Below, piece after piece: positions 1,969 to 56,048 of a stretch of DNA of 64,000 nt (position 1 is its first letter; every line of letters begins with the position of its first letter). The DNA comes from an uncultured Bacilli bacterium (lineage in GTDB: Bacteria > Bacillota_I > Bacilli_A > RF39 > UBA660), in NCBI GenBank assembly GCA_934096075.1, contig CAKOLN010000003.1, positions 26,184 to 90,183 of the forward strand, written 5' to 3'. The notes below the pieces were generated by a model. It was not told where the DNA came from. It searched no databases and worked only from the letters and a program-made list of their open reading frames with translations. A program made the position numbers and the translations under genes.

Positions 1969-2130
1969 TTAATTATATATAGGGTAGGAACTATCCGAGT
2001 TTATGTCTCTTTACATTAATAATAGTATTATTAAATGGAGAAAATTCTAATAGTGATATTAGAAGCATGCGATATTAAATCGTGTGAGGTTCACAATAAA
2101 TGTAAACTAACAATATTTGTTAATTCAATG
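1850..2130 (+). ncRNA. Putative omegaRNA/reRNA of TnpB, derived from the tnpB 3' end plus the IS right end
   Basis: Inferred from established TnpB biology, in which the guide RNA scaffold overlaps the tnpB 3' end and the right end. A structured right-end region with hairpins is present. Not directly demonstrable from sequence alone. Confidence 0.3.
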
Positions 2131-2157
2131 AATTCAATTATGTGATACAATACTATT

Positions 2158-3384
2158 ATGAAGAAGTTTTTTAAAAGTTTAATAATATTTATTTTAATGT
2201 GCCCTTTAATAACAAAAGCATTTGAAATTGAAGGATTATATTCTAAAAATGTCTTAGTCTACAATTTAGATGAAGATAAGATTTTATATAATGTAAAAAG
2301 TGAAGATAAAATTAGCATAGCAAGTCTTACAAAAATAATGACTACAATAGTCGCTATAGAAAATATTGAAAATTTAGATGAAACCATAACTATAACTTCT
2401 AAAATGTTAGATGACATTCCATATGATGCATCAACCGCAGGATTAGAAGTTGGAGATAAGGTAACTTATAAAGATTTGTTATATGCAAGTCTTATACCTT
2501 CTGGAGCTGATGCAACTCAATCATTGGCAGTTTCGATCTCAGGTTCAGTATCTAAATTTGTAGAACTTATGAATAATAAAGCAAAAAGCTTAAATATGAA
2601 AAACACTCACTTCGTTAATACTACAGGACTAGATGCAGAAGGACATTATTCAACACTAGAAGACATACTTATTTTAATAAAATATGCCTTAAAAAATGAA
2701 ACATTTAAATCAGTATTTGAAACAAAATCATACACAACTACAAACAATATTAAACTTAAATCAACATTAGATTATTATAATAGAGATTTTAATTACAACA
2801 TATCTTATGTATTAGGATCAAAAACAGGTTTTACTGATGATGCAGGCCTATGCCTATTAACTTTATCAAATGTAGATGACACAAATATCATTACAATAAC
2901 AGCTAATGCACCCTATTCTTATGGTAACTCTAAAAACATGATGGACCTAAACACAATAAAAACATCATTAGATAAATCATTTGAAAAAGCAACACTCATA
3001 ACTGAAAACGAGCAACTAATAGTATTAAATACGAAATATGCTAAAGAAAAAGAAATAAAAATAACATCTCCTTCCGAAATAACTAAATATGTAGAAAAAC
3101 CTTTCAATAAAGATAAAATAAAAACTGAATATACTGGAGAAAAAATAATATCATACAAAACAGAAAAAGGTACTAAACTTGGAGAAATAAAAATAAGTTA
3201 TAATGATGAATTAGTAGATATAATTGAAGTTAAATTAGATAAAGATTTACACTTTAGTTTATGGGTATTTATTAAAGATAATATATTGCTAATCACTATA
3301 GTAATCATAGTATTTCTAATGCTTCTATTAATAATTAGAAAATCTAAAAAGAAAAGAAAGAGACTAAGAAAAATGAGACGATAA
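2158..3384 (+). CDS. D-alanyl-D-alanine carboxypeptidase (PBP5/DacB-type serine peptidase S11) with C-terminal TM anchor and K/R tail
   Basis: Signal peptide; SxxK motif (SLTKIM), SxN-like region and KTG motif (KTGFTDDAG); C-terminal hydrophobic segment followed by KKKRKRLRKMRR. Confidence 0.8.
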   Translation: MKKFFKSLIIFILMCPLITKAFEIEGLYSKNVLVYNLDEDKILYNVKSEDKISIASLTKIMTTIVAIENIENLDETITITSKMLDDIPYDASTAGLEVGDKVTYKDLLYASLIPSGADATQSLAVSISGSVSKFVELMNNKAKSLNMKNTHFVNTTGLDAEGHYSTLEDILILIKYALKNETFKSVFETKSYTTTNNIKLKSTLDYYNRDFNYNISYVLGSKTGFTDDAGLCLLTLSNVDDTNIITITANAPYSYGNSKNMMDLNTIKTSLDKSFEKATLITENEQLIVLNTKYAKEKEIKITSPSEITKYVEKPFNKDKIKTEYTGEKIISYKTEKGTKLGEIKISYNDELVDIIEVKLDKDLHFSLWVFIKDNILLITIVIIVFLMLLLIIRKSKKKRKRLRKMRR

Positions 3385-3398
3385 GTCTCTTTTATTAT
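3352..3398 (+). repeat. Direct repeat copy 1 (47 nt): stop codon plus rho-independent terminator hairpin of dacB
   Basis: aaaagaaagagactaagaaaaatgagacgataagtctcttttattat; 46/47 identical to 4397-4443. Contains a hairpin (gagact...agtctc) followed by a T-run. Confidence 0.8.
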
Positions 3399-3461
3399 AC
3401 TAAAACATATGATATAATTAATTTGAGACAAACTTAAAAGAGAAAAAATATAAAGAAAGGA

Positions 3462-4412
3462 GTGAAAGAAATGATTGATTTTTCTACTTCAATTGAAGAA
3501 TTAAATAGTTATAAGGGATCAGAAAAAAAGAAAACCTTAATTTACAATGGAAAAAAATATTTAGTAAAATTTCCAGATCCAATAAGAGAAAAAAATAAAA
3601 CAATTTCATATATAAATAATGCTTTTTCAGAATATGTAGGAAGCAATATCTTTAAATTACTAGGATTTGAAACTCAAAATACATTACTAGGTATTTATAA
3701 GTACAATAATAAAGACAAAGTAGTATGTGCTTGTGAAGACTTTACTGACAGTAACCACGAATTGTATGAATTTGAAAATCTTGCACTAAGTACTAATCCC
3801 GATAAAAAAATTCAAACTGAATTAAATGACATAATGGAAGTTATTAATTGGTTGACTAATTCAAAAGATATTAAATTGTATATAAATGATAATATAAAAG
3901 AAAAGTTTTGGAATATGTTTATCATAGACTGCTTAATTGGAAATACCGACAGACATAATGGCAACTGGGGATTATTGGTAAACACTAAAACTAAGGAAGC
4001 AAGTTTTTCACCAATATATGACTGTAGTTCTTGTTTAAATCCAATGTTAGATGATGAGGAATTATCTAAAATAGATGAAATAGAGTTAAAAAATTTAGCA
4101 ATTAATTCATATTCATGTCTTAAAGAAAATGGAAAAAAGATAAATTACATCACTTTCATAAAAAATGCAAAAAACGAAGACTGCAATAAAGCTTTATTAA
4201 GAGTATTTAAAAAAATTAACATAGAAGAAATTAATGACTTTATAGATAGTATAAAAGGAATATCAAAAACAAGAAAAAACTTTTATAAAAACATAATTAA
4301 TTATAGATATAATATATTAAATAAAATACATAAGAAAATAGTTAATTCAAGATATAAAGTAATTAGGGAATCTTATGATAAAATAAACATTGATAGAAAA
4401 GAAAGAGACTAA
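3462..4412 (+). CDS. HipA-like Ser/Thr kinase domain protein (HipA_C / CtkA / HipT-like, short form)
   Basis: 316 aa; the catalytic-loop motif CLIGNTDRHNGNWGLL matches the HipA_C GNxDxHxxN signature. No adjacent HipB/HipS-like small ORF. Own promoter (TGaTATAAT at about 3408-3420) and RBS AAAGGAG. Confidence 0.6.
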   Translation: MKEMIDFSTSIEELNSYKGSEKKKTLIYNGKKYLVKFPDPIREKNKTISYINNAFSEYVGSNIFKLLGFETQNTLLGIYKYNNKDKVVCACEDFTDSNHELYEFENLALSTNPDKKIQTELNDIMEVINWLTNSKDIKLYINDNIKEKFWNMFIIDCLIGNTDRHNGNWGLLVNTKTKEASFSPIYDCSSCLNPMLDDEELSKIDEIELKNLAINSYSCLKENGKKINYITFIKNAKNEDCNKALLRVFKKINIEEINDFIDSIKGISKTRKNFYKNIINYRYNILNKIHKKIVNSRYKVIRESYDKINIDRKERD

Positions 4413-4443
4413 GAAAAATGAGACGTTAAGTCTCTTTTATTAT
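4397..4443 (+). repeat. Direct repeat copy 2 (47 nt): terminator duplicated after the HipA-like gene
   Basis: aaaagaaagagactaagaaaaatgagacgttaagtctcttttattat. It is read in a different frame from copy 1, and here supplies the last codons and stop of the HipA-like ORF. Confidence 0.8.
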
Positions 4444-4546
4444 GTCTAATTCTATCAAATTTCAAAAAAATTCTAGTAATTTCCCCTATTTATGTGCTAT
4501 TATATATATACTAGCGGAGTATTGACTTAAAATTGTACCAAATCTT

Positions 4547-4575
4547 TCACAATTTGCAAATGCATAAAATTGTGA
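4547..4575. promoter_or_regulatory. Promoter of the rplI-dnaB operon with a 9-bp perfect inverted repeat (candidate operator)
   Basis: TTGCAA-17 bp-TGTGATATAAT (extended -10). The inverted repeat tcacaattt...(11)...aaattgtga spans the -35 and -10 elements. Confidence 0.5.
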
Positions 4576-4599
4576 TATAATATACTGACGGAGGATTTT

Positions 4600-5040
4600 A
4601 TGAAGATAATATTACTAGAAAATGTAAAAGGAACTGGAAAAAAAGATGAAATAAAAGAAGTTAAAGATGGCTTTGGAAATTTCCTTATAAAATCAAAAAA
4701 AGCAGTTTCTTATTCAGAAAAAAGTAAAGAGGTTCTAAAAACTCAATTAGAAAACAAAAAAGAAGAAGAAGACAGAATATATAAAGAAGCCTTAGAATTA
4801 AAAAGTAAGTTAGAAAAAACAAAACTAACTTTTAAAGTAAAAACTGGGGCTCAAGATAGAGTTTTTGGTAGTATAAGTTCTAAACAAATAAGTGAAGAAT
4901 TAAAAAAGAAAAACCTTAATGTAGACAAAAAAATAATAGATGCAGAAAACATAAATTCTCTAGGAATGCATTTAGTTAAAATAAAATTACATAAAAAAGT
5001 AACTGCCGAATTAAATGTAGAATTAAAAGGTGGTGAATAA
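4600..5040 (+). CDS. rplI: 50S ribosomal protein L9
   Basis: 146 aa; the N-terminal MKIILLENVKGTGKKDEIKEVKDGFGNFLI is typical of L9; RBS GGAGG. Confidence 0.9.
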   Translation: MKIILLENVKGTGKKDEIKEVKDGFGNFLIKSKKAVSYSEKSKEVLKTQLENKKEEEDRIYKEALELKSKLEKTKLTFKVKTGAQDRVFGSISSKQISEELKKKNLNVDKKIIDAENINSLGMHLVKIKLHKKVTAELNVELKGGE

Positions 5041-6390
5041 ATGGCAAGAAAAGAACCACAAAGTATTGAAGCAGAAATAAATGCTTTAGGATGTGCGTTC
5101 TTAAGTAAAAGTGCTTTAGACAAAGTATGTGAAGAATTAACCATGCCTATGTTTTACCTAGACGGTCATAAAAAAATATTTGAAGCATTATTAAATTTAA
5201 GAAGTACAGACACTGCAGTAGATATAACAACTGTAACTAATGAATTAGAAAGAACTAAATCACTTAGTTCAGTAGGCGGAATAGACTATTTAACTGAAAT
5301 AGTAAATTCAGTCGCAACACCTGCTAACTTAGAATACTACATAAAAATAATATTTGAAAAATACGTATTAAGATGTCTAATAGAAGAATCAACTAAAATA
5401 ATAGATGAATGCTATGATGAATCAGAAGATTTAAATTCTATAGTTGAAGATGCAGAAAAAAGAATTCTTGGAGTAAATAGTGATAGAATGATTAAAGATA
5501 TCAAACCTATTCAAGAAGTCTTAGTAAAAGCACAACAAGAAATAGAATCACTATCTAAAAATGGTGCAGACATAACAGGTGTACCTAGTGGATTTAAAGA
5601 CTTAGATAGAAGAACAGCTGGATTTCATGGCAATGAATTAATTATCTTAGCTGGTCGTCCAGGAATGGGTAAAAGTGCCCTTGCTATAAACATGGCAACA
5701 CATATGACAATAAATGCAAAAAAGTCAGTAGCCTTATTTAACCTAGAAATGGGAGCAACTCAAATAGTAAACAGAATGTTCTCATCCATTGGACAAATAG
5801 ATGGACAAAAACTAAGAACTGGTAGACTAGATCATATGGACTGGAAAAAATTTAACGAAGCATTAAGTCTACTAGCAGATACTAAGTTTTTTATAGATGA
5901 TACACCAGGAATAACAGTCGCAGAAATAAGAAGCAAATGTAGAAAATTAAAAAATAGTGATAAAGGTCTAGACTGTATAATAATAGACTACCTACAACTA
6001 ATAAGCAGTTCAAATAAGTACTCTGGACAAAGAACTAATGAGGTAAGTGAAATATCAAGAGACTTAAAAAAACTAGCAATGGAGTTAGAAGTGCCAGTAA
6101 TCGCCCTTGCACAACTATCTCGTGGTGTGGAACAAAGAGAAGACAAACGACCTTTAATGAGTGACTTAAAAGAAAGTGGCTCAATAGAACAAGATGCAGA
6201 TATTGTAATGTTCATTTATTGTGATGACTATTACAAATTCAAATCAAAAGAAAGACCTGCACTATCACCAACAGAACTAATAATTTCTAAACACAGAAGT
6301 GGTAGTACTGGTACAGTAGATTTAATTTTTGAAAGAGAACATGCTAATTTCAAAAATTATCTAAGAAGTGAGGAAAAAGAAAATGAATAA
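5041..6390 (+). CDS. dnaB: Replicative DNA helicase DnaB (DnaC in Bacillus nomenclature)
   Basis: 449 aa; Walker A GRPGMGKSA, RecA-like C-terminal domain, N-terminal DnaB domain; conserved synteny downstream of rplI. Confidence 0.92.
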   Translation: MARKEPQSIEAEINALGCAFLSKSALDKVCEELTMPMFYLDGHKKIFEALLNLRSTDTAVDITTVTNELERTKSLSSVGGIDYLTEIVNSVATPANLEYYIKIIFEKYVLRCLIEESTKIIDECYDESEDLNSIVEDAEKRILGVNSDRMIKDIKPIQEVLVKAQQEIESLSKNGADITGVPSGFKDLDRRTAGFHGNELIILAGRPGMGKSALAINMATHMTINAKKSVALFNLEMGATQIVNRMFSSIGQIDGQKLRTGRLDHMDWKKFNEALSLLADTKFFIDDTPGITVAEIRSKCRKLKNSDKGLDCIIIDYLQLISSSNKYSGQRTNEVSEISRDLKKLAMELEVPVIALAQLSRGVEQREDKRPLMSDLKESGSIEQDADIVMFIYCDDYYKFKSKERPALSPTELIISKHRSGSTGTVDLIFEREHANFKNYLRSEEKENE

Positions 6391-7846
6391 GAAAAGTATA
6401 TATTGGAGCTCAGTATTTGTAATCATACTAACTAGCCTAATATTTATACTTGGAACAGATAGAAAAAGTTATGATGAAAACCCTGAAACTGTTTATCAAG
6501 TATATCTAAACGGTCAAACAATAGGTGTCATCAAAAGTGAAGATGCCCTATATGACTTAATAGATAAAGAACAAAAAAATCTTAAAAAAGAATACAAAGT
6601 AAATAAAATATATGCTCCAATCGGACTAGAAGTAACTAAATTAGTAACATATGATAGTGAACTAGACGATGTAAAAGAAGTTTATAATAAAATAAAAGAT
6701 GAAGAACCATTTACTGTAAAAGGTTATGAAGTAACAATAACACATGATGAAAATAACATAGAAAAAATAAATGTACTAGATAAAAAGGACTTTGATACAG
6801 CAGTAGAAAATACAATAAAAGCTTTCGTAGATGAAACTGAATATGAAAAATACTTAAATGAAACTCAAGATGAAATAATAACAACAGGTTCAACTATAGA
6901 AAATATAAATATAAAAGAAAATATAACTATAAAAGAAAAATATCTAAGTACAGAAGACAAAATATATAGAGACGCAAATGAATTAAGTAGATACATGTTA
7001 TTTGGTACTGATGAAACTCAAGGAACACACATAGTAACCGCAGGAGAAACAATTAAACAAATTGCTGACGAATATGAACTATCAGTAAAAGAATTCTTAA
7101 TAGTTAACCCTGAAATAGTAAGTGAAAATGCATTATTATTTAACGGACAAGAAGTTAATGTAGGACTAGTAAAACCAATAATAAGTATTGTAGTAGAAAA
7201 TAATCTAGTTGAAGATAAAACAGTACCATATCAAAGTCAAACGAAATATGATAATAAATATGTGGTTGGTACAACATGGACAGAACAAACTGGACAAAAT
7301 GGTATCAGTAGAGTTGAATACTATACAGAAACAATAAATGGTGTAATAACTCAAGTAATACCATTAAGTACAGAAGTAATTAAACCAGTAGTAGATGAAG
7401 TAATAGTAAAAGGTGGTCTATCTATAAACTATGTAGGTGACACAGGTGCTTGGTATTGGCCAACAATAAGACCATATGTAATAACTTCATACTTTGGATG
7501 GAGAACAGACCCAATATCTGGAGAACATACATATCACCGTGGAATAGATATTTCCGGTACAGGTTATGGTTCACCAATATATGCTGCTCAATCAGGTACA
7601 ATCACTAGAATTGGATGGGCTGGAGACATGGGTAATTACATTTACATAGATCACGGAAAAGGATTCCAAACAATCTACATGCATTTAAGTGGTTTTGCAG
7701 ATGGAATGAGAAGTGGAGTTGCAGTAACTAAAGGAGAATTAATTGCATATATGGGAAGTACTGGATATTCAACTGGTACACACTTAGACTTCCGTATAAT
7801 GGCGAATGGTGTTTACATAGACCCACTAGGAGTAAAATATAACTAA
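6368..7846 (+). CDS. Membrane-anchored LysM plus M23 family metallopeptidase
   Basis: N-terminal TM; LysM-like segment (TAGETIKQIADEYELSVKEFLIVNPEI); M23 motifs HRGIDISG and HLDFRI. Confidence 0.8.
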   Translation: MRKKKMNKKSIYWSSVFVIILTSLIFILGTDRKSYDENPETVYQVYLNGQTIGVIKSEDALYDLIDKEQKNLKKEYKVNKIYAPIGLEVTKLVTYDSELDDVKEVYNKIKDEEPFTVKGYEVTITHDENNIEKINVLDKKDFDTAVENTIKAFVDETEYEKYLNETQDEIITTGSTIENINIKENITIKEKYLSTEDKIYRDANELSRYMLFGTDETQGTHIVTAGETIKQIADEYELSVKEFLIVNPEIVSENALLFNGQEVNVGLVKPIISIVVENNLVEDKTVPYQSQTKYDNKYVVGTTWTEQTGQNGISRVEYYTETINGVITQVIPLSTEVIKPVVDEVIVKGGLSINYVGDTGAWYWPTIRPYVITSYFGWRTDPISGEHTYHRGIDISGTGYGSPIYAAQSGTITRIGWAGDMGNYIYIDHGKGFQTIYMHLSGFADGMRSGVAVTKGELIAYMGSTGYSTGTHLDFRIMANGVYIDPLGVKYN

Positions 7847-8607
7847 TGAAAATCCATATACTAGGAAGTGGATCTAAAGGAAACTCTACATTTATAGATT
7901 TAGGAAACAAAAAAATCTTAATAGATGTAGGGTTTTCCTATAAACATATAAAAGAACAACTATCTAAAATAAACATAGATCCTAAAGAAATAGATGCTGT
8001 TCTAATAACCCATGACCATTCAGATCACACATATGGACTACCTGTATTTATAAACAAAGTTAACCCATTATTATATATAACTCCAGAAGTAGAAGAAGTA
8101 ATACTGAAAACACCTTACGAAAAAAGTATCTATTTAGGTGATGAATTATATATAGATGACGCTATGATAAAAGTAATACCTACATCTCATGATGCATTAA
8201 CATCAAATGGTTTTCTAATAGAAAAAAATAATGAATCTCTAGTATACATAACAGATACTGGTTACATAAATCAAAGATACTTTAAATTCCTACAAAACAA
8301 AACATACTACATAATAGAAAGCAACCATGATACCGAAAGATTAATAAAAGGAAGGTATCCAGAATATTTACAAAGAAGAATACTTAGTGATAAAGGACAC
8401 CTATCTAATGAATTATGTGCAGGTTATCTATCTAGATTTATCGGACCAAATACAAAAAAAGTTGTACTAGCACACTTATCAGAAGAAAATAATACAATAG
8501 ATTTAGCTTTAAACACAACTGAGTCAGTACTTAAAGAAAATAATATAAGTTTTTCAAACATAACATGTGCAAGTCAAACAGAATTAACCGAGGTAACTAA
8601 TGATTAA
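7846..8607 (+). CDS. MBL-fold metallo-hydrolase (YycJ/WalJ-like)
   Basis: 253 aa; HDHSDH motif; its position before rlmH matches yycJ-rlmH synteny in Bacilli. Confidence 0.75.
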   Translation: MKIHILGSGSKGNSTFIDLGNKKILIDVGFSYKHIKEQLSKINIDPKEIDAVLITHDHSDHTYGLPVFINKVNPLLYITPEVEEVILKTPYEKSIYLGDELYIDDAMIKVIPTSHDALTSNGFLIEKNNESLVYITDTGYINQRYFKFLQNKTYYIIESNHDTERLIKGRYPEYLQRRILSDKGHLSNELCAGYLSRFIGPNTKKVVLAHLSEENNTIDLALNTTESVLKENNISFSNITCASQTELTEVTND

Positions 8608-9037
8608 AATAATATGTATAGGTAAAATAAAAGAAAAATATCTAACAGATTTAATAAACGATTATCAAAAAAGAATAAACAAATATCATAAATTAGAAAT
8701 AATTGAACTAAAAGATTCCAACATAAATAATGAGAAAGAAGAAATACTTAAACATATAAAAACTTCTGATTACATTATATCAATGTGTATAGAAGGCAAG
8801 TTATTAACAACTTTAGAATTAAAAGATAAAATAGAAAGTCTTATGCTAAATGGTAACTCAAATATAACATTTATAATAGGTGGTTCTGATGGAATACATG
8901 ATGAAATAAAAAGACTAAGCAATGAATTAATATCTTTCTCAAAACTAACATTTCCTCATGGTTTATTTAGAGGGATACTATTAGAACAAATATATAGAAT
9001 ATTTAAAATAATGAATAATGAAACCTACCATAAGTAG
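8600..9037 (+). CDS. rlmH: 23S rRNA (pseudouridine1915-N3)-methyltransferase RlmH (SPOUT)
   Basis: 145 aa; YbeA/RlmH-like size and N-terminus (MIKIICIGKIKEKY...); synteny with yycJ. Confidence 0.7.
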   Translation: MIKIICIGKIKEKYLTDLINDYQKRINKYHKLEIIELKDSNINNEKEEILKHIKTSDYIISMCIEGKLLTTLELKDKIESLMLNGNSNITFIIGGSDGIHDEIKRLSNELISFSKLTFPHGLFRGILLEQIYRIFKIMNNETYHK

Positions 9038-9120
9038 GTTTTTACTTTTAAAATCATACTAGTTTATTTTAACCAAACATAATATAATATAAGTATAAAT
9101 AAAAAGATAAGGAGAACAAA

Positions 9121-9603
9121 ATGAAGAAAATATTCTTAATTGCAATTTGCATACTTATAATAGGATGTCAAAAAGAAGAAAATATTTATACTATAAAAGC
9201 AAACATTGAGGAAAATATTCTTAAGAATAAAGACTACAATAATTTAAGTTCATGTAAAATTGATGAAATCAATAATACAATAACTATAGAATTAATCAAT
9301 AATAGTGAAGAAGAACAAGAATGGTTTAAAAATAATATATCAAATTCAAATAAACTAATATTTAAGCAAGGAAAAGAAATTAAACAAGAAGAACTAACTT
9401 ATGTTTATAATTATATTAACGATTACATAAATTCAAATGGGCAAATAGAAAATTATACAGGTCATTACATAGATGAAATATGTAATAGTGTTGTAGTGAG
9501 TTTATTAGAAAATAACCAAAAACATCAAAATAATTTTAAACAAAACATAATTGATTCTAATCTAATAGAATTTAAAAAAGGAAATTATGGTATAGACCAA
9601 TAA
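9121..9603 (+). CDS. Lipoprotein, function unknown
   Basis: Lipobox LIIGC at residues 13-17; 160 aa, N/E/K-rich. Confidence 0.6.
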   Translation: MKKIFLIAICILIIGCQKEENIYTIKANIEENILKNKDYNNLSSCKIDEINNTITIELINNSEEEQEWFKNNISNSNKLIFKQGKEIKQEELTYVYNYINDYINSNGQIENYTGHYIDEICNSVVVSLLENNQKHQNNFKQNIIDSNLIEFKKGNYGIDQ

Positions 9604-9632
9604 CAAGTATCTACTCGAACTAGATACTTTTT
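9601..9632 (+). terminator. Rho-independent terminator (copy A), identical to 12382-12415
   Basis: taacaagtatctactcgaactagatacttttt: 8-bp stem agtatcta/tagatact, 7-nt loop, T-run. Confidence 0.8.
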
Positions 9633-24767: not shown

Positions 24768-25532
24768 ATGAAAAAGAAAATAATGATTGTGGATGATAAC
24801 AAGGCCTTAGTAGGTATGTTAAAAGAGTTTATAAATAATACTAATGACTTAACATTATTAAAAGAAGCATATAATGGTGGAGAAGCATGGGAATATATAA
24901 AAGATAATTATAGTGAAATAGATGCTTTAATATTGGACTTAGTAATGCCAGAAAAAGATGGAATGTATTTATTAGACAAATTAAAAGAAAACAAAATAAA
25001 TTTAAAAATATTAGTATTAACAAGTTACAACGAACAAGAAACAATAAGAAATGTAAGTGAATATGGAGTAAAATATTTCATGCTAAAACCATTTGACTTA
25101 CAAGAATTACATAAAAGAATACAAGATATAACAAATCCTAAAGCAAAAGAAGCAAAAATAATAAATGTAGAAAAGAATAATACTCAAGCAATGATAACTA
25201 AACTCTTACATGAACTAGGAATACCATCACATATTAAAGGCTATCAATACATAAGAGAAGCCATCAATATGGTATATGATGATCCTAAACTTATAGGAGG
25301 CATAACTAAAGAATTATATCCAGAGATAAGCACTAAATATGGTCAATCAGTAACTCGAGTAGAAAGAGCAATTAGACACGCTATTGAAGTGAGTTGGAAT
25401 CGTGGAGATTGGGACTTAATGGAAGAAATCTTTGGACACTCAGTTGATATAGATCGAGCAAAACCTACAAACTCAGAATTTATAGTAACAATCGCAGACA
25501 AACTAAGATTAGATATGCTAAAAATACATTAA
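24768..25532 (+). CDS. spo0A: Sporulation master regulator Spo0A (REC plus Spo0A_C DNA-binding domain)
   Basis: 254 aa; receiver domain (DDN...D, LDLVMP); C-terminal Spo0A signature HIKGYQYIREAI...ISTKYGQSVTRVERAIRHAIEVSWNRGD...EFIVTIADKL. Confidence 0.9.
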   Translation: MKKKIMIVDDNKALVGMLKEFINNTNDLTLLKEAYNGGEAWEYIKDNYSEIDALILDLVMPEKDGMYLLDKLKENKINLKILVLTSYNEQETIRNVSEYGVKYFMLKPFDLQELHKRIQDITNPKAKEAKIINVEKNNTQAMITKLLHELGIPSHIKGYQYIREAINMVYDDPKLIGGITKELYPEISTKYGQSVTRVERAIRHAIEVSWNRGDWDLMEEIFGHSVDIDRAKPTNSEFIVTIADKLRLDMLKIH

Positions 25533-27093: not shown

Positions 27094-27163
27094 TCTTCTT
27101 TTTTATAATACTTTTTGATAAAATAAAATTATCACAAATTAACAAAAGATGAGGAGTTTAGCT

Positions 27164-28033
27164 ATGAAATACTATATAGAATTACAGGGAACTTGTTGGT
27201 TAGTTCAATACTTAAATTATATTAATAAAGATTATGATAAAGACAGTTTTTTTAAATATCTAGCACTAAATAGATTTTTAAGATACGAAAAGGCAATAAA
27301 ACTTGTTAATAACAAAGAACTTATTAACACTAAAGAATACTTATTAGAAACATTATTAACATTTGAAGGAAGTTTATTTGATATTGAAGATATATTAAAC
27401 TATAAAATAAATTGGGATTTAAAAAATGATATTAAACTAGAAGATATAATGTTAATGAATGAAAAAGTATTGATGTTTTTATTAGAAATGTATGATAACA
27501 ATATAGACTTGAGTAACAAGATTTTTGAAAAGTTAAATAAAACATTTGGTAATTTAAAATTTGAAAAAAATAAAAAAAACACACTTAATATAGTGATAAG
27601 TAATCCAAAATTAGAATACAAAAAAATAAATCTAATTAACAGTGAAAACCTATATCATACTCAGAAAAGTTTTTATAATGTACAAAATGTTAATGAAATA
27701 ATAGATAGAGAATTGACAAAAAACAAAAAGGTTTTAGTTTCAATAGATATAGCTAAATCAGTAACAGACATAAACAAAATTATATATCCGAAAGGAATAA
27801 AAAAGGATACTTTAAATAAATTTATATCTATAGATAATCACTATTACATATTAACTGAAAAAATAACTCTAAATAATGAAACATATTATAAAGCATTCAC
27901 TGGATATCAAAATGATGAATATGCATTAATTTCAAATAAATATTTGAAAGAGTTTCTAAATCATATAATATGTGATAAAATAACAATTAAAGAAGAAACA
28001 ACACTAGATTTTTATAAATATATGGAGGAATAA
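27164..28033 (+). CDS. Hypothetical protein
   Basis: 289 aa from the ATG after the GAGGAG RBS; no motifs recognised. Confidence 0.45.
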   Translation: MKYYIELQGTCWLVQYLNYINKDYDKDSFFKYLALNRFLRYEKAIKLVNNKELINTKEYLLETLLTFEGSLFDIEDILNYKINWDLKNDIKLEDIMLMNEKVLMFLLEMYDNNIDLSNKIFEKLNKTFGNLKFEKNKKNTLNIVISNPKLEYKKINLINSENLYHTQKSFYNVQNVNEIIDRELTKNKKVLVSIDIAKSVTDINKIIYPKGIKKDTLNKFISIDNHYYILTEKITLNNETYYKAFTGYQNDEYALISNKYLKEFLNHIICDKITIKEETTLDFYKYMEE

Positions 28034-28034
28034 A

Positions 28035-28820
28035 ATGCAAGAAATATCAAAATCAAATGAAAAAGTAAAAGAATTAAAAAACTTAAAAAATAAGGGAAAA
28101 AACAATTTAATGGTAGTAGAAGGTTTAGATGTAATTAAAGAAGCAATAAACTATAATGCTGAAATAATGAGTGTGTTTTATAATGAAGAAACATTAAGAG
28201 ATGAGGCACTAGAATTATTAAATGAATGTAAAAAAAGAGCAAAAGAAGTATATAGAATTTCGCTTAAAACATTTGAATCATTAAAAGAAAAAGAAAATGC
28301 AATACCTATCATAATTGTTGTTAAATATAAAGAATTAACATTAAAAGATATAGACAAAAATAAACATAAATTAATAATAGTAAATGATAGAATAGAATTA
28401 CCAGGTAACTTAGGAACTATATATAGAAGTGCATATGCAAGTGGAGTAGACCTAATAATAAATGTTAATCCTGTAACAACAATATACAAAGAAAAATTCT
28501 TGGCCAGTTCAAGAGGAACGATATTCAGTATTCCTACTATAAATACTACATATGAAGAAGCCCAAAAATCACTTTTAGAATTAGGCTATGATATATGTCT
28601 TTGTGAACCAGTTGAAGGAACATCATATAATGAATTTGACTATCAAGAAAATACAGCATTAGTAATAGGAAATGAAAGATTTGGAATTAATAAAGAATGG
28701 TACAATAACAAAAATAGTAAAGTATTTATACCAATGAAAGAAGGTATTAATTCAATAAATGTTTCAGTCGCAGGCTCAATAATAATGTTTGATGCTGGTA
28801 TAAAAATGAGGAAAATATGA
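28035..28820 (+). CDS. TrmH/SpoU-family RNA 2'-O-methyltransferase (RlmB-like)
   Basis: 261 aa; SPOUT motifs (LVIGNERFGI, SINVSVAGSI); stop overlaps the start of the downstream radical-SAM gene (ATGA). Confidence 0.7.
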   Translation: MQEISKSNEKVKELKNLKNKGKNNLMVVEGLDVIKEAINYNAEIMSVFYNEETLRDEALELLNECKKRAKEVYRISLKTFESLKEKENAIPIIIVVKYKELTLKDIDKNKHKLIIVNDRIELPGNLGTIYRSAYASGVDLIINVNPVTTIYKEKFLASSRGTIFSIPTINTTYEEAQKSLLELGYDICLCEPVEGTSYNEFDYQENTALVIGNERFGINKEWYNNKNSKVFIPMKEGINSINVSVAGSIIMFDAGIKMRKI

Positions 28821-30022
28821 AATTAAGTAAATATGTAATTAAGATTCCATATGGCACTAAAGTGATTTTATATAATACAGTAAATGATATGATTGTACTT
28901 TGCGATTATAAAGACTTTTTTAACAAAGAAACAAAACAATATTTAAAAAATAATGGATATTATGATAATAGTGAAAAACAATTAAAAAATTTTATAAAAA
29001 ATACTAAAAAGAAAAGAACCCAACTTGATATAACAATAAGTTTAACAGAGAGTTGTAATTTATGCTGTAAGTACTGCTCTCAAAGTGGAGTAAAAAATGA
29101 TTCATTTATAACTAAAGAAATAATTGATGAAATAATAGAATACATAGAAATTTGTAAAAATAAATATGGCTATAAAACATTTTCAATCCATTTATTTGGT
29201 GGAGAACCATTATTACAAAAGCAGGAGATTCTATATTTAAATAACAAATTAAAAGAAAAAAATATACCAATAAATTATTATATGGATACTAATGGAATAT
29301 TGTTAAGTGAAAAATTTATAAAAGAATTTGATAATATAACTTTTTGTGTAACATTAAGTAACAAATGCGACCACGATAATCTAAGAGTTACTTCAAACAA
29401 TACTGGAAGTTATGATTTAATTATGGAAAATCTAAACAAAATTCAGTATGTACTTGATAACAATCATAGATTAATGGTTAGATATAATGTGAATGATAGA
29501 AATATAAATGACTTAGAAGAATTCCTTAAAACAATTGAAAACATTAAAATAAGTGATTTTGTTGTAGCCTATACAAATAATTATAAAGAAAATTTATTTA
29601 TAAATAAATTACCTTATAAAAAGTATAAAAAATGGAATTCTAAAAAAATAATACCACTACTAGAAAAATATAATTATCCTATATCACTTCCTACATCAAG
29701 TTTTTATTGTAAAGGCTATGAAGACTATTCTATAAAAGTCTTTTCGAATGGTAAAATAGGTATGTGTAATGCCTATGATATTAGTAATTCAAAATATACA
29801 TTAAAAGAAATATTAGAAAACTACTATAAAACAAAAAAACTTATAAAACCTTTTGAAGAAGAAAGAAATCTTGATAATATAATAGATAAAGAATGTAAAA
29901 AATGTGCATTAATATATATATGTAATGGTAAATATTATTGCAGAGATAATAAATGTGATTTTTTAGATTATAATTTAAAAGAATACATTAAATCATATGT
30001 AAAAAATGTATTGAATAAATAA
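28817..30022 (+). CDS. Radical SAM enzyme with C-terminal SPASM/twitch-like Cys cluster and ~75-aa N-terminal extension (putative peptide-modifying maturase)
   Basis: 401 aa; CxxxCxxC as CNLCCKYC at about residues 80-87; C-terminal Cys cluster (MCNAY...CKKCALIYICNGKYYCRDNKC); the N-terminal extension before the rSAM core fits an RRE-like domain. Confidence 0.7.
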   Translation: MKLSKYVIKIPYGTKVILYNTVNDMIVLCDYKDFFNKETKQYLKNNGYYDNSEKQLKNFIKNTKKKRTQLDITISLTESCNLCCKYCSQSGVKNDSFITKEIIDEIIEYIEICKNKYGYKTFSIHLFGGEPLLQKQEILYLNNKLKEKNIPINYYMDTNGILLSEKFIKEFDNITFCVTLSNKCDHDNLRVTSNNTGSYDLIMENLNKIQYVLDNNHRLMVRYNVNDRNINDLEEFLKTIENIKISDFVVAYTNNYKENLFINKLPYKKYKKWNSKKIIPLLEKYNYPISLPTSSFYCKGYEDYSIKVFSNGKIGMCNAYDISNSKYTLKEILENYYKTKKLIKPFEEERNLDNIIDKECKKCALIYICNGKYYCRDNKCDFLDYNLKEYIKSYVKNVLNK

Positions 30023-30061
30023 AATAATTTGGTAAAATATAGTTAAGAAAGGAATTAAATT

Positions 30062-30166
30062 ATGAAAGTAATTAAGAAACCCGTTAAAAAATCTAAAATT
30101 AATGCAGCAGGATGTGGAGAAAACAAGGTTAATAGTAGCCATTGTGCATCAAAGAAAAGTAATTAA
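30062..30166 (+). CDS. Small ORF (34 aa) absent from the ORF track: candidate RiPP precursor / signalling peptide
   Basis: MKVIKKPVKKSKINAAGCGENKVNSSHCASKKSN; RBS AAAGGAA 8 nt upstream; a strong hairpin terminator (aggcccatatgggtct plus T-run, 30174-30200) lies immediately downstream; two Cys residues; sits directly after the rSAM/SPASM gene. Confidence 0.5.
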   Translation: MKVIKKPVKKSKINAAGCGENKVNSSHCASKKSN

Positions 30167-30272
30167 TTAGATTTAGGCCCATATGGGTCTTTATTTTTGT
30201 ATAAAATTACCACTACTTGCATTTTTTTTAAATTGTGCTAAAATAAAGTACACTGAAAAGAGGCGATTATAT

Positions 30273-32036
30273 ATGTCATTAATAAAAAAAGATACAAATT
30301 ATCCTAGTATTGATAAAACTCACGAAAAACAATATAATTTTTTTGAAAATAATCCAATAATTCCAAGCATAAGCATATTTAATGCAATAAACCTTATTAG
30401 TAAAAGCTATTCTAATGAAATTGCTGTTAATAGTTTAGAACTTAACAAGACTTTTAAATCGCTAATAAAAGATTCTGCTTTGCTTTCTAAAGCATTTAAA
30501 GAACTTGGAATAAAAAATGGTGACATAATTGTTGTATCAATGCCTAATTATTATCAAGCTGTAATTACTTTTTTTGCAGCAAATCGCATTGGAGCAACAA
30601 CAACATTTTTAAATTCATTTAGTAGTAAAGAAGAAATTAGTAATTATTTAAACTTATTTGAATCGCCTTTATTTATAAATTATAATAAAAGTGAAGAATA
30701 TAACAAATATATAAAAAATAATACAAAAGTAAGACAAATTATAACCCTATATGAAAAAGATTTAAATATGCCATATTTTAATGATAATACTAATAATTTT
30801 ATAGGCTATAATGATTTTATTTCTTTTAATGATGCAAAATTAGTTGGTAATTACTATAAAAAGCCATTAACAACATTATATGGAGGAAAAGAAAATGCTT
30901 TAATATTATACACAAGTGGAACTACAGGTAATCCAAAATCAGTAGTTTTAACCAATGAAAATATCTTGGCCTCAGGAATATACATGAAAAATTCAACAAA
31001 TTTATCAAATACTAAAGGAGAAAAATCATTAGTATGTGTACCATTTACTTACCCTTATGGTTTTTCAACATCAACATTAATGAGTTTATTATGTGGTAGA
31101 CAAGCAATTCTAGCACCTGATTTATCAAGTGAAAATATAAAAACATATTTAAAGAAAAATCCAAATATAATTTTTGGAAGCCCAGCATTATTAGAACTTA
31201 TAAAAAGAAATACACCTGAAAATCAAGATTTGTCATCAATTAAAACATTTATATCTGGTGGTGATTTTCTAACAGAAACGCAAGCGAAAGAAGGAAAAGA
31301 ATTTTTTAAAAAGCATAATGCAGAAGTAACAATATGTAATGGTTCTGGAAATGCGGAGACAGTTGGCGCCAGCACAAACTCAGTAGGAATAAAAATAAAA
31401 CCAGAAACAGTCGGAAAAATTCTAGTGGGCACAAAAGCAATTGTTATTAATCCTGACACAATGAAAGAATTAAAATATGGTGAAGAAGGTTTATTATGCA
31501 TAAGTGGTAAACATGTGTTTAAAGAATATTATAAAGAGCCAAAACTAACACAGGATTCAAAATTTATTTACAAAGGTAATACATATTTTAAAACAGGAAC
31601 AAGAGGCAAAATAGATAAAGAAGGTTACTTTACTTTAACTGGAAGAGATTCAAGATATTATATTATCTCAACTTTAAATAAAGTATATTGTGATAGAGTA
31701 CAATTAATTATGTCTAGAATAGATTGCATAGAAGCAGTAGCAATAGTAGAAAAACCTGACAAAGAAATGTTGTTTACAAACAAAGCATTTATTGTGTTAA
31801 AGGAAGGTATAAAAGCAAGCGAGGCAATAAAAAAATATATATTAAGAAAATGCACTGAAACTTTGAAATTAGAAAACGGAGAAGATGTTGAACTAAAAGA
31901 ATATGAAATACCTAGTAGCATAGAATTTGTTGAAAAATTGCCTAGAACCAAAGCAGATAAAATTGATTACAATGTTTTAAAAGAAAATGCAATAAATGAA
32001 TATAAAGAAGAACAGCATATACTAAAGCTTAAATAG
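30273..32036 (+). CDS. AMP-dependent synthetase/ligase (adenylate-forming enzyme, acyl-CoA-ligase-like)
   Basis: AMP-binding motif LYTSGTTGNPKSVVLT; A-domain-like architecture; RBS AAGAGG; start at the ATG at 30273. Confidence 0.8.
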   Translation: MSLIKKDTNYPSIDKTHEKQYNFFENNPIIPSISIFNAINLISKSYSNEIAVNSLELNKTFKSLIKDSALLSKAFKELGIKNGDIIVVSMPNYYQAVITFFAANRIGATTTFLNSFSSKEEISNYLNLFESPLFINYNKSEEYNKYIKNNTKVRQIITLYEKDLNMPYFNDNTNNFIGYNDFISFNDAKLVGNYYKKPLTTLYGGKENALILYTSGTTGNPKSVVLTNENILASGIYMKNSTNLSNTKGEKSLVCVPFTYPYGFSTSTLMSLLCGRQAILAPDLSSENIKTYLKKNPNIIFGSPALLELIKRNTPENQDLSSIKTFISGGDFLTETQAKEGKEFFKKHNAEVTICNGSGNAETVGASTNSVGIKIKPETVGKILVGTKAIVINPDTMKELKYGEEGLLCISGKHVFKEYYKEPKLTQDSKFIYKGNTYFKTGTRGKIDKEGYFTLTGRDSRYYIISTLNKVYCDRVQLIMSRIDCIEAVAIVEKPDKEMLFTNKAFIVLKEGIKASEAIKKYILRKCTETLKLENGEDVELKEYEIPSSIEFVEKLPRTKADKIDYNVLKENAINEYKEEQHILKLK

Positions 32037-32110
32037 AATTTATTCGAATAAATATTAAATAAATTCTTTTTTTGTGATATAATTTACTTAAAATACGAGG
32101 AGTTGATTAT

Positions 32111-34327
32111 ATGGGAACTGGAATATACTTTCCAATTAGTGCTTTATTATTTAGCTTATTGATAATGTTATTATTCTTTTTAAAAGAACATATTAATACA
32201 ATGGAAACAAAACTTTATGGTGCAATAGTTATAACAAATTTTTTAGGTTTAATCATTGAAATCCTATGTACATTAGCATCAAAAATATATGAAACTAATA
32301 AACTTTTTGCAGACATTATCTTAAAATTATATCTAGTTTATTTAGTAACATGGGCACTAATATTTACGATTTATATAATATTAATTTCATTTAATAATAA
32401 TAAACTAAAAAATAATAAAGAAAAATTACTTAGAATCGCAAAAATATTTTATTTTATTTCAGTAATAATAATTTATATTTTACCAATTGATTTAGTAATA
32501 AAAAATAATTTTTCAATAAGATATACAACTGGACCAAGTGTATATTTTACATACTTTATTTCATTTGTAATGATTATAGTTATGCTTTATTGTATGATAA
32601 AAAATTATAAAAATTTGAAATCAAAGAAATACCTACCATTATTTACTTTTTTAACTTTAGGTACTGCAACGATGATTTTTCAAATGATTAATCCTCAATT
32701 TTTATTAATAACATATATGGAAACATTTATAACTGTATTAATGTATCATACAATTGAAAACCCAGATGTTAAAATGAAAAATGAATTAGAACTAGCCAAA
32801 AATAAAGCAGATCAAGCAAATAATGCAAAATCAGATTTCTTATCAAGTATGTCGCATGAAATAAGAACACCATTAAATGCAATTGTAGGTTTATCAGAAA
32901 ATATGCAAACAGAAACAAACATGAATGTAATACATTCTAATGCAAAAGATGTAGTCGATGCAAGTTATATACTTTTAGATATAGTAAATAGTATACTAGA
33001 TATAAGTAAAATAGAAGCAGGAAAAATGGAAATGGTAAATACTAACTATAATCTAAAAAGTGAAGTAAAAAAACTAGTAAAACTATTAGAAACAAGAATA
33101 GGAGAAAAAGATTTAAAACTAGTAACAAATATAAGTGATGAAATACCAAATGTATTATATGGGGATGTAAATAAAGTAAAACAAATAATAACAAACTTAG
33201 TAACAAATGCAATAAAATATACAGACAGTGGAGAAGTAGATTTCACAATAGATGCAGAAAACAAAGATGATAAATGTAACTTAACAATAACAGTAAAAGA
33301 TACAGGAAGAGGAATAAAAGAAGAACAACTAAAACACCTATATGAAAAATTTGAAAGACTAGAAAGTGATAAAAACACAACAATCGAAGGAACAGGATTA
33401 GGACTAGCAATAACAAAACAATTAGTAGGAATGTTTAAAGGAACAATAACAGTAGATAGTATATATGGAAAAGGTTCAACATTCAAAGTAACACTAACAC
33501 AAGACATAAAAGAAGGAGTAATACTAGAAGAACATAATGAAACAGAACAACAAAAATATAATAATGTAAAAGTACTAGTAGTAGATGATAGTAGTCTAAA
33601 CTTAAAAGTAGCCGACACAATATTAAGAAAATATAATATAGAAACAGAACTAGTAACAAGTGGACAAGAATCAATAGAAAAATGCAAAACAAATAAATAT
33701 GATATAGTATTTATGGACATAATGATGCCTTCAATGTCAGGAGAAGAAACATTAAAAAAACTAAAAGAAATAAAAGACTTTAACACACCAGTGGTAGCCT
33801 TAACCGCAGATGCAATGGAAGGAAAGAAAGAAATATATCTAAGTGAAGGATTTATAGATTATCTAAGTAAACCAATACAAAGACCAGAATTAGAAGAAGT
33901 ACTAGGTAAAATATTAAGTAATAACATTTCATCAGAAACAAGAACAGAAGATAAAAGTACAAATAACCTATCATACTTAGAAGAACACGGTATAGATACA
34001 AAAACGCCATTAGAAATGTTTGGTAGTGAAGAAATGTACATAGATTCAATAAAAACATTTATAGAAGAAACACCAGAATCTTATACTAATCTTATGAGAT
34101 ACTATTTAGACAATGATTTAGAAGATTATAAAATTTTAGTTCACAAATTAAAAAGTGAAAGCAGGTATATTGGACTAAATAAATTCTCAGATATGTGTTT
34201 AGAACATGAAATAAAAGCAAAAGAAGGGGATAATCAATATATAATATCTAACTTTAGTAGCTTAATAAAAGAATACAAAAATGTAATGAGAATATTAAAA
34301 GATTTTATATGTACGACAAATAAATAA
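32111..34327 (+). CDS. Hybrid sensor histidine kinase (7 TM – HisKA – HATPase_c – REC – HPt)
   Basis: 738 aa; seven N-terminal TM helices; H-box SHEIRTPLNAI; N/G boxes (NAIKYT, GTGLGLAI); REC (VLVVDDSSLN...FMDIMMP); C-terminal HPt-like helix with HKLKSES. Confidence 0.8.
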   Translation: MGTGIYFPISALLFSLLIMLLFFLKEHINTMETKLYGAIVITNFLGLIIEILCTLASKIYETNKLFADIILKLYLVYLVTWALIFTIYIILISFNNNKLKNNKEKLLRIAKIFYFISVIIIYILPIDLVIKNNFSIRYTTGPSVYFTYFISFVMIIVMLYCMIKNYKNLKSKKYLPLFTFLTLGTATMIFQMINPQFLLITYMETFITVLMYHTIENPDVKMKNELELAKNKADQANNAKSDFLSSMSHEIRTPLNAIVGLSENMQTETNMNVIHSNAKDVVDASYILLDIVNSILDISKIEAGKMEMVNTNYNLKSEVKKLVKLLETRIGEKDLKLVTNISDEIPNVLYGDVNKVKQIITNLVTNAIKYTDSGEVDFTIDAENKDDKCNLTITVKDTGRGIKEEQLKHLYEKFERLESDKNTTIEGTGLGLAITKQLVGMFKGTITVDSIYGKGSTFKVTLTQDIKEGVILEEHNETEQQKYNNVKVLVVDDSSLNLKVADTILRKYNIETELVTSGQESIEKCKTNKYDIVFMDIMMPSMSGEETLKKLKEIKDFNTPVVALTADAMEGKKEIYLSEGFIDYLSKPIQRPELEEVLGKILSNNISSETRTEDKSTNNLSYLEEHGIDTKTPLEMFGSEEMYIDSIKTFIEETPESYTNLMRYYLDNDLEDYKILVHKLKSESRYIGLNKFSDMCLEHEIKAKEGDNQYIISNFSSLIKEYKNVMRILKDFICTTNK

Positions 34328-50967: not shown

Positions 50968-52541
<1,574 letters not shown>

Positions 52542-52822
52542 ATGGAGTAATAACTAGTAGAAAAAAGAACCGTAAATATCATTCGGGGTTTGCTTAATTG
52601 AAACATGATATATTATAAACTAACATAAAACACATTTTACTCGGCTTTGAGAGATTATTTCTCTCAATATTGTATTTAATTATACGATAATTGTTCTTTG
52701 AAAACTTGATAATGTGATGTTCATATTGTTCTTACGAGCAACAATATGAATGCTTAATTTTTTGGTAATTTATTTAAAGATAAATATTAAGAAATAGCTC
52801 ATCAAATTAGGATATATAAAGT

Positions 52823-55740
<2,918 letters not shown>

Positions 55741-55805
55741 CATTTAATTTGATGTTTTTAATCACATTATCTTGTTTTGAGAGAACAATTATGGTATAAT
55801 CATTT

Positions 55806-55912
55806 TATTGGTGACGATAGCAAAGTGGATACACCTGTTCCCATCTCGAACACAGAAGTTAAGCACTTTAACGGCGAAGATAGTGTAAGCGAAAATAGCA
55901 AGTTGCCAATAT
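55806..55912 (+). rRNA. rrf: 5S ribosomal RNA
   Basis: GTTCCCATCTCGAACACAGAAGTTAAGC core; terminal helix UAUUGG/CCAAUA. The ends are approximate. Confidence 0.85.
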
Positions 55913-55930
55913 TTTTTTTGCAATAAAATA

Positions 55931-55960
55931 CTTGAAATGTTTTAACAAATATTGTATAAT
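55931..55960 (+). promoter_or_regulatory. Promoter for tRNA-His (TTGAAA-17-TATAAT)
   Basis: cttgaaatgttttaacaaatattgtataatc, immediately upstream of the tRNA. Confidence 0.6.
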
Positions 55961-55971
55961 CATATCTACAT

Positions 55972-56048
55972 GGCGGTATTGGTGAAGTGGTTAACACACC
56001 AGATTGTGGCTCTGGCATGCAAGGGTTCGACTCCCTTATACCGCCCCA
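55972..56048 (+). tRNA. tRNA-His (GUG) with encoded G-1 and CCA
   Basis: Acceptor stem GGCGGUA/UACCGCC with an extra 5' G pairing the C73 discriminator; anticodon loop UUGUGGC; T-loop GGTTCGACTCC; 3' CCA encoded. A terminator hairpin follows at 56055-56085. Confidence 0.9.

Follow-up and report, generated by a model that had tools for sequence, protein, structure and literature searches.

What is made by the radical S-adenosylmethionine (rSAM) enzyme that an uncultured Bacilli bacterium (contig CAKOLN010000003.1) encodes just upstream of a 34-codon open reading frame (ORF), and which of the neighboring genes take part? The stretch of DNA analyzed, here called the window, is 64,000 nt long with a GC (guanine plus cytosine) content of ~25%, and all positions are given in its numbering. 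A first-pass annotation had joined a methyltransferase, the rSAM enzyme, the small peptide, an adenylate-forming ligase and a hybrid histidine kinase into one peptide-modification and sensing module. We think it probable instead that the unit is an operon of four genes, 27164–30200, which encode a cysteine peptidase, a SPOUT methyltransferase, an enzyme with RiPP recognition element (RRE), rSAM and SPASM parts, and a 34-aa precursor peptide. On balance we favor reading this operon as the biosynthetic cluster of a not yet curated family of ribosomally synthesized and post-translationally modified peptides (RiPPs), in which the methyltransferase perhaps protects the producer's ribosome. The core of this reading, a precursor peptide and an RRE-rSAM-SPASM maturase that together make a RiPP, is well supported, by comparison and by structure alike. 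The earlier parts list had missed the conserved peptidase gene (27164–28033) and treated the methyltransferase as incidental; both are conserved partners. The features of the operon, with their strand, are as follows.

27102..27129, + strand: putative operon promoter, TTTATA-16-TAAAAT, from a consensus scan; a weak match only, in an AT-rich genome
27164..28033, + strand: 289-aa putative papain-fold cysteine peptidase of the bleomycin-hydrolase/PepC (C1B) type
28035..28820, + strand: 261-aa SpoU/TrmH (SPOUT) 2′-O-ribose methyltransferase with an L30e-like N-terminal RNA-binding domain (Pfam)
28817..30022, + strand: 401-aa probable peptide maturase, RRE-like / radical-SAM / SPASM-like
30062..30166, + strand: 34-aa precursor peptide MKVIKKPVKKSKINAAGCGENKVNSSHCASKKSN; ribosome-binding site (RBS), frame and length conserved
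30175..30200, + strand: intrinsic terminator and operon end; stem GGCCCA/UGGGUC plus T-run

These genes are tightly coupled and end at the terminator. The putative promoter lies directly after the gpmI stop codon (27093) and a weak hairpin, and the peptidase gene starts at ATG 27164 behind a GAGGAG RBS (the mechanical ORF call begins at 27149). A gap of 1 nt separates it from the methyltransferase gene, whose RBS, GGAGGAA, sits inside the final codons of the peptidase gene, and the TGA of the methyltransferase gene overlaps the ATG of the rSAM gene (ATGA); coordinates, overlap and the SpoU_methylase match (111 bits) all agree with the translational coupling of a TrmH-family methyltransferase to a 401-aa rSAM enzyme that had been noticed at first reading. 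The peptide gene does have the good RBS (GAAAGGA, 8 nt upstream) and the terminator that were ascribed to it. An RBS precedes every gene of the operon, and its single terminator, after the peptide gene, is the sole terminator-like site in the 11 kb scanned; a hairpin and T-run likewise lie 3′ of the peptide gene in the relatives L091 and L003. The four-gene block is intact, with both flanks variable, in the window and in L001, L003, L005, L090 and L091, and close relatives keep both the order of a 287–294 aa protein, SpoU methyltransferase and rSAM enzyme and the methyltransferase/rSAM overlap. The cluster was found in every close relative sampled, and in these small 25% GC genomes its neighbors are core genes (gpmI, the S10 operon, gap and EF-Tu).

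The rSAM enzyme is of the RiPP-maturase type, with a probable three-part RRE-rSAM-SPASM architecture. It belongs to the Radical_SAM family PF04055 (53 bits against a cut-off of 29.5 bits), and the CxxxCxxC motif that had been placed at residues ~80–87 is C80/C84/C87, invariant among 18 homologs. Little or no variation is seen in the same homologs at the C-terminal cysteines, C298-x13-G-x4-C317 ... C360-x2-C363-x5-C369-x5-C375-x4-C380. Their SPASM-type spacing is Cx13Gx4C ... Cx2Cx5Cx5Cx4C, compared with the standard Cx9-15Gx4C ... Cx2Cx5Cx3C ... C that serves two auxiliary Fe-S clusters. Its top NCBIfam matches are all RiPP maturases (PapB with 75 bits, geopeptide, CefB, CcpM and YhhB). The closest PDB entry is CteB by sequence (E 1e-8) and ChlB, then CteB, by profile; Foldseek also puts CteB at the top (E 7e-17 over 438 columns, N-terminal domain included), followed by ChlB, anSME, SuiB, TigE and SkfB. 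An AlphaFold2 (AF2) model of P0014, the homolog from L007 that carries a fused peptide (overall predicted local distance difference test score, pLDDT, 84), has strands at 7–12, 15–20 and 25–30 and helices at 31–35, 39–47 and 54–66, with pLDDT >90. The N-terminal domain would have an RRE-like β3-α3 topology, an assignment drawn purely from this predicted fold; RREs are PqqD-like winged helix-turn-helix domains of about 70–90 residues to which leader peptides bind. The NCBIfam matches, the closeness to CteB and the RRE-like domain all bear out the first-pass view of the protein as a RiPP-type peptide maturase.

A word-indexed search returned 35 relatives of the enzyme, and an exhaustive profile search returned 1546 proteins at E 1e-30 or better, with ~100 representative clusters (50% identity) scoring >200 bits. 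The family is real, moderately large and uncurated, and neither the rSAM enzyme nor the peptide fits a curated model. Two other roles for the enzyme were set aside: that of an anSME-like formylglycine maturase, as the peptide lacks CxPxR and anSME ranks below CteB and ChlB, and that of part of an anti-phage defense system, for which the search gave just a generic 53-bit match to the pVip rSAM core. We also note that in both alphaproteobacterial loci (L009:6560–9447 and L013:6472–9369) a cysteinyl-tRNA synthetase (CysS) gene adjoins the rSAM gene, running in its direction in one of them and divergently in the second; shared ancestry is possible.

The 34-aa ORF is a genuine conserved gene under coding selection that lies beside the rSAM gene across phyla. 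An ORF of 33–34 codons follows the rSAM gene wherever the contig of a close relative (61–82% identity) extends far enough, namely in L001, L005, L091 and L003, the last of which had its peptide gene missed by the gene caller. Five peptide orthologs of 33–34 codons show 20–24 nt differences per 105 nt; their indels are of whole codons only, the two kinds of substitution, synonymous and non-synonymous, are equally common (11 and 8 codons, respectively, when the window is compared with L001), and the RBS is kept. Beside rSAM genes whose products show 28–36% identity, in Clostridia, Thermoactinomyces, Ezakiella, Pseudonocardiales, other Actinobacteria and Alphaproteobacteria, a small Cys peptide is likewise encoded in each case. 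Its N-terminus is of the same type, MK(V/I)(V/I)KKP if the host is low-GC and V(L/V)V(D/N)L if it is actinobacterial. L007, whose rSAM enzyme P0014 is 42% identical, has the peptide joined in frame to the rSAM C-terminus (...KGES-MKVVKKPKKIMSSGCGSSKVSSHCQSRKNG, L007:2961–4292). That the ORF travels with the enzyme is thus upheld: it is kept beside close and distant homologs and is fused once.

In the window peptide the leader is approximately MKVIKKPVKKSKIN(AAG), and the core has C18 and C28. The majority core motif in the family is C-x2-C-(N/Q)-G-S-x-S-(D/G); the window-clade core, G-C-G-x4-5-S-S-H-C, is derived, and the core of L010 is intermediate. Nine family peptides gave no NCBIfam or Pfam match at E up to 10. 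The window-clade peptide is strongly basic (isoelectric point, pI, 10.1), and the actinobacterial and alphaproteobacterial peptides have pI 4.6–5.1; the idea that the peptide is generally a basic rRNA binder was rejected because high pI is clade-specific. Some loci depart from the simple arrangement. L018:3129–4589 encodes one peptide in which the core is repeated in tandem (...SGCYTPCQQGSSGGNK, present twice), and its rSAM gene is split by a frameshift; two precursor genes lie in tandem in L011:9325–9572. In L103:4781–8489, from a 33% GC metagenome, a 25-aa peptide (MKVIKKPKEKKQNVKMCCSCTNTIS) is encoded upstream of the rSAM gene, and a second rSAM enzyme and an APH-type phosphotransferase follow it, which suggests extra tailoring in some family members.

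The methyltransferase is a member of the SpoU/TrmH family (PF00588, 111 bits against a cut-off of 29.7 bits) with an L30e-like N-domain (PF22435, MRM3-like_sub_bind, 30.9 bits against 27 bits). It lies below every NCBIfam cut-off, including those of RlmB (TIGR00186, 23S rRNA Gm2251; 96 bits against 160) and NshR/TsnR (NF000477; 78 bits against 425), and the RlmB model gives 80–110 bits with rSAM-linked and non-linked relatives of the enzyme alike. The closest PDB sequences are 1ipa (76 bits), 7qiu (YsgA/RlmP, Gm2553; 76), 9h1k (RlmR, Um2552; 75) and 4x3l (RlmR; 71), and the next matches are AviRb, NshR and Tsr. To measure the association with the rSAM enzyme, 175 fetched loci were scored with rSAM-family and methyltransferase profiles, family membership being set at rSAM ≥385 bits and the frameshifted L018 being counted. 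A homologous SPOUT methyltransferase is present in the locus in 9 of the 14 family lineages; among the 141 rSAM loci with lower scores just one has it (Fisher p 2e-10). Its gene overlaps the rSAM gene in low-GC Firmicutes and in L018 and is directly upstream in Thermoactinomyces, and in Actinobacteria the order is peptide, rSAM and a convergent downstream methyltransferase; this lineage-variable arrangement argues against inherited synteny. In L010 (Clostridiales metagenome-assembled genome [MAG], 869–9627) the genes for the methyltransferase, a 296-aa unknown protein, a U32 peptidase-family protein related to UbiU/TrhP hydroxylases and the peptide lie upstream of the rSAM gene. This set is bounded on one side by a tyrosine integrase of phage type and on the other by a large serine recombinase, after which come DarT/macro-domain (DarTG-like) genes, and the flanking recombinases place it on a mobile island. 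Two family loci without the methyltransferase have ABC transporters directly 3′ of the peptide gene. A literature search turned up no paper linking rSAM RiPPs with SPOUT/rRNA methyltransferases, though its coverage was incomplete and absence is not proven.

The peptidase has an invariant Cys16 (in QGTCW) and His231. By sequence the 289-aa protein matched no curated family, and a sequence link to PepC was sought, profile search included, with none found. Its own family is confined to the window's low-GC clade (33 database hits); one homolog is labeled as a "Mycoplasmatota/Tenericutes bacterium" MAG, and L007 has a remote homolog in the same position (hhalign probability 91%).

Taken together, the parts suggest how the cluster may work. 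The RRE-like N-terminal domain would bind the leader, M-K-(V/I)-(V/I)-K-K-P (V-(L/V)-V-(D/N)-L in Actinobacteria), probably as an added β-strand, and the rSAM/SPASM core would carry out 5′-deoxyadenosyl radical chemistry around the two conserved cysteines (G-C-G ... S-S-H-C), the likeliest product being Cys-to-carbon thioether cross-links such as CteB makes. The bleomycin-hydrolase-like cysteine peptidase would then remove or trim the leader. The SPOUT methyltransferase, closest to the 23S A-loop 2′-O-methyltransferases RlmP and RlmR, would methylate rRNA; the peptide's target would be the ribosome, and methylation would protect the producer in the manner of Tsr/NshR. We infer the ribosomal target and the protective methylation because such a methyltransferase recurs beside the rSAM family. 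Our confidence falls in the order cross-link type (probably thioether), leader trimming by the peptidase, and a ribosome-directed role for the methyltransferase. A bolder and tentative proposal, to which we give clearly less than an even chance, is that the locus is the founding example of a cross-phylum group of peptides, cross-linked by rSAM enzymes, whose site of action is the ribosomal A-site / peptidyl-transferase region. The RlmP/RlmR-like methyltransferase, joined in L010 by the U32 protein with its kinship to RNA and quinone hydroxylases, would modify the same rRNA site. Such same-site methylation would mean producer immunity, or else a peptide that tunes the producer's own ribosomes, and would define a new ribosome-targeting RiPP class and a new rRNA-methylation resistance determinant that is already on a mobile island.

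Beyond the terminator lie the ligase and the kinase of the first-pass module, with the following features.

30217..30244, + strand: promoter of the neighboring unit, outside the module, TTGCAT-16-(TGc)TAAAAT (extended -10); ~35 nt conserved with L005
30273..32036, + strand: AMP-binding (acyl-CoA-ligase-like) enzyme of 587 aa, outside the module; AMP-binding 182 bits
32111..34327, + strand: multi-transmembrane (TM) hybrid histidine kinase, outside the module; HisKA, HATPase_c, Response_reg and Hpt

The conserved promoter stretch of ~35 nt (TTGCAT ... TGTGCTAAAAT/TATAAT ... GTACAC; L005:4885–4920, approximate) may include an operator. The adenylate-forming ligase is confirmed as such by its AMP-binding match, but it most likely starts at ATG 30273 (RBS AAGAGG) and so has 587 aa rather than the 617 of the ORF 30183–32036. 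The hybrid kinase likewise has the HisKA, HATPase_c, REC and Hpt domains, and its hydropathy scan gives five strong and one or two weaker hydrophobic segments, that is, 5–7 TM rather than the firm seven first reported. In L005 the Hpt-REC part is a separate 245-aa protein, compared with the REC and Hpt domains fused to the kinase in the window. The presence of the pair was judged in the three close relatives with contigs past the peptide gene (L001, L003 and L005): L005 has it, as does the window; L001 and L003 have neither gene 3′ of the peptide gene. The expected co-occurrence in relatives is therefore seen for the rSAM enzyme and peptide, and the ligase-kinase pair is limited to the window and L005. 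Identity between these two is 74% for the methyltransferase, 65% for the rSAM enzyme, 47% for the kinase and 27% for the ligase, and the rSAM enzyme of L001 is 82% identical to that of L005, yet L001 is without ligase and kinase. No kinase or ligase lies beside the rSAM family in any other lineage examined. The ligase and kinase were rejected as parts of the module on the strength of the terminator, their own conserved promoter, the synteny and the 27% ligase identity; they are a separate transcription unit that the module does not need. The pair (30273–34327) lies directly upstream of the S10 ribosomal-protein operon and is uncharacterised in its own right.

Several observations weigh against the favored reading in one or another of its parts. 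For the enzyme, the relatives from which a cross-link type is extrapolated are distant: CteB is ~20% identical, and no NCBIfam score comes near its cut-off. The SPASM/twitch-like cluster and the N-terminal RRE of the first-pass annotation hold at the level of seven conserved cysteines, the CteB fold match, the RRE-like fold of the AF2 model and the span of the Foldseek alignment, and fail at that of profiles: SPASM PF13186 does not match the window enzyme by sequence, and the PqqD Pfam profile has no match for eight N-terminal domains at E up to 10. In the AF2 model of the L007 fusion the peptide tail is disordered and undocked (pLDDT <50), and the fusion, known from a single MAG contig, either joins enzyme and substrate naturally or reflects the loss of a stop codon. 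The catalytic residues of the peptidase are inferred from conservation, without residue-level superposition, and the RNA target of the methyltransferase is a guess from ~75-bit matches. The nearest methyltransferase homologs outside the clade (53, 45 and 42% identity) adjoin no rSAM gene, one of them lying in a tsaE-tsaB-rimI-tsaD operon, and in a neighbor-joining tree the window-clade methyltransferases group with rSAM-unlinked homologs, the rSAM-linked methyltransferases of other phyla forming a second clade. Either the association arose twice, or the window methyltransferase is a housekeeping enzyme that shares the operon; it may be an ordinary housekeeping rRNA methyltransferase, and these contexts and the two separate clades weaken the idea of a dedicated methyltransferase that co-evolves with the rSAM enzyme. 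Finally, the conserved block of the window clade has no exporter, which is unexpected for a secreted antibiotic. One rival account makes the product a SCIFF-like housekeeping peptide, modified but intracellular and physiological, with the methyltransferase and peptidase merely operon-sharing housekeepers and neither antibiotic nor immunity involved. SCIFF, whose function is unclear, is conserved widely among clostridia, and its maturase CteB is the closest solved enzyme; a block without transporter, lodged among core genes of small 25% GC genomes in every close relative sampled, and methyltransferase homologs without rSAM partners (one in the tsaEBD operon) would all fit. We nevertheless consider this account rather unlikely: recurrent adjacency of the methyltransferase across phyla (9/14 against 1/141 loci) is beyond chance, the mobile-island context of L010 is left unexplained, other family members have ABC exporters, and neither the SCIFF model nor another curated model of a precursor matches the peptide.

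A peptide that serves as quorum signal or killing factor, which the AMP-ligase would tailor or activate and the hybrid kinase would sense, possibly feeding Spo0A, is a good deal less credible. The ligase and kinase do follow the peptide gene both in the window and in L005, whose rSAM enzymes are 65% identical, and the multi-TM sensor region of the kinase lacks a recognisable ligand domain; but a terminator and a separate conserved promoter intervene, L001 and L003 have the four-gene block without a nearby ligase or kinase, the two ligases are only 27% identical, no other family lineage is accompanied by either gene, and the kinase is an HK-REC-Hpt (HK, histidine kinase) hybrid phosphorelay protein, not one of agr or Com type. 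The placing of ligase and kinase in one module with the peptide thus fails, nothing supports the quorum signal, the Spo0A link or the SkfA-type killing factor, and dropping the two genes from the model spares effort on a signaling hypothesis. Most improbable of all, in our view, is that the substrate of the rSAM enzyme is RNA, modified jointly with the SPOUT methyltransferase, or else another protein, and that the small ORF is an unrelated small basic protein or a leader-like regulatory ORF. Such a role would suit an operon that pairs an rSAM enzyme with an RNA methyltransferase, the U32 protein related to UbiU and TrhP hydroxylases in L010, the pI of 10.1 of the window-clade peptide and the CysS gene adjacent in both alphaproteobacterial loci. 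Against it stand the RRE-rSAM-SPASM architecture and best matches that are all peptide maturases, the one fusion of peptide to enzyme (L007), the persistence of the peptide-rSAM pairing where the methyltransferase is absent, and the pI of 4.6–5.1 of other peptides, by which basicity is no family trait.

We therefore return to a RiPP cluster with a possible self-protection gene. The outcome is a defined four-gene cluster with its precursor identified and the leader and core delimited by cross-phylum comparison, and its repeated pairing with an rRNA-type SPOUT methyltransferase is atypical of rSAM RiPPs. Classically, an enzyme that modifies the target, when its gene lies in the cluster, points to what that target is. 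Should the methyltransferase serve self-protection here, the peptide would be a candidate new ribosome inhibitor, and the methyltransferase gene would be a candidate for a resistance gene that can be transferred.

Elsewhere in the window, an IS200/IS605-type element at 481–1968 (a 131-aa TnpA-like ORF, then a 363-aa TnpB-like ORF, judged by eye from the translations) was seen. A full-length Spo0A (TIGR02875, 264 bits against a 200-bit cut-off) is encoded at 24768–25532 between tpi and gpmI, and there are genes for cell-wall enzymes (a D-Ala-D-Ala carboxypeptidase-like protein, M23 peptidases and FtsEX); from these we take the organism to have a wall and, probably, to form spores or to descend from spore-formers. 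A complete rRNA operon at 50969–56048 (16S 50969–52539, 23S 52823–55743, 5S 55807–55911, then tRNA-His) accounts for a jump in GC to 45%.

Comparison with known systems is informative in placing the cluster. It resembles SCIFF / CteA-CteB (thermocellin), PapA-PapB and SkfA-SkfB in having a short Cys precursor beside a single maturase, here probably of the same RRE-rSAM-SPASM build, and SCIFF systems also in its compact locus, often without a transporter. CteB is the closest solved structure to the rSAM enzyme both by sequence and by fold, and PapB is its best NCBIfam model, yet with 75 bits against a cut-off of 340 bits (NF047865) the enzyme falls outside the PapB family. SCIFF peptides have six cysteines in 45 residues, whereas the peptide here has two and no NCBIfam match at E up to 10; the 25 best NCBIfam hits of the enzyme do not include the SCIFF maturase model, and the CteB match is just E 1e-8. 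In sactipeptides a Cys sulfur is joined to an α-carbon, and in ranthipeptides to a β- or γ-carbon, of the acceptor residue. The window-clade core has two Cys and conserves no CxxxD/E motif, and its maturase has a SPASM spacing of Cx2Cx5Cx5C in place of Cx2Cx5Cx3C. The SPOUT methyltransferase and C1B-like peptidase also set it apart, as neither partner was found reported for SCIFF, ranthipeptide or sactipeptide systems in an incomplete literature search. By analogy, then, the cluster would work like a sactipeptide/ranthipeptide system, yet it fits neither the PapB nor the SCIFF family.

The peptidase shares with bleomycin hydrolase / aminopeptidase C (MEROPS C1B: Gal6, PepC, PepW), whose catalytic residues are Gln, Cys, His and Asn, the Cys-Trp nucleophile motif and the conserved His, but it has 289 aa as against ~445 aa, its Gln-to-Cys spacing is 3 residues rather than 6, and it is clade-restricted and without sequence-level similarity to them.

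For the methyltransferase there are two sets of relatives. In thiopeptide clusters (Tsr/NshR) and in that of avilamycin (AviRb), as here, an L30e-like SPOUT 2′-O-ribose rRNA methyltransferase is encoded with the biosynthetic genes, and Tsr/NshR methylation protects thiopeptide producers. NshR/TsnR, a family defined in part by 2′-O-methylation of A1067, is the second-best NCBIfam model for the window enzyme, which at 78 against 425 bits is not a family member, and the chemistry is unrelated: rSAM/SPASM here, YcaO, dehydratase and cycloaddition in the thiopeptides. RlmP and RlmR, housekeeping enzymes of the A-loop, are nearer to the window enzyme than Tsr, NshR and AviRb are, and a role in resistance is suggested by analogy. 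With RlmP (YsgA, Gm2553) and RlmR (Um2552) it shares the L30e-like plus SPOUT architecture and a similar length, although at ~75 bits the matches do not establish orthology; those enzymes are encoded by stand-alone housekeeping genes, whereas the methyltransferase here is the operon partner of an rSAM enzyme and its peptide.

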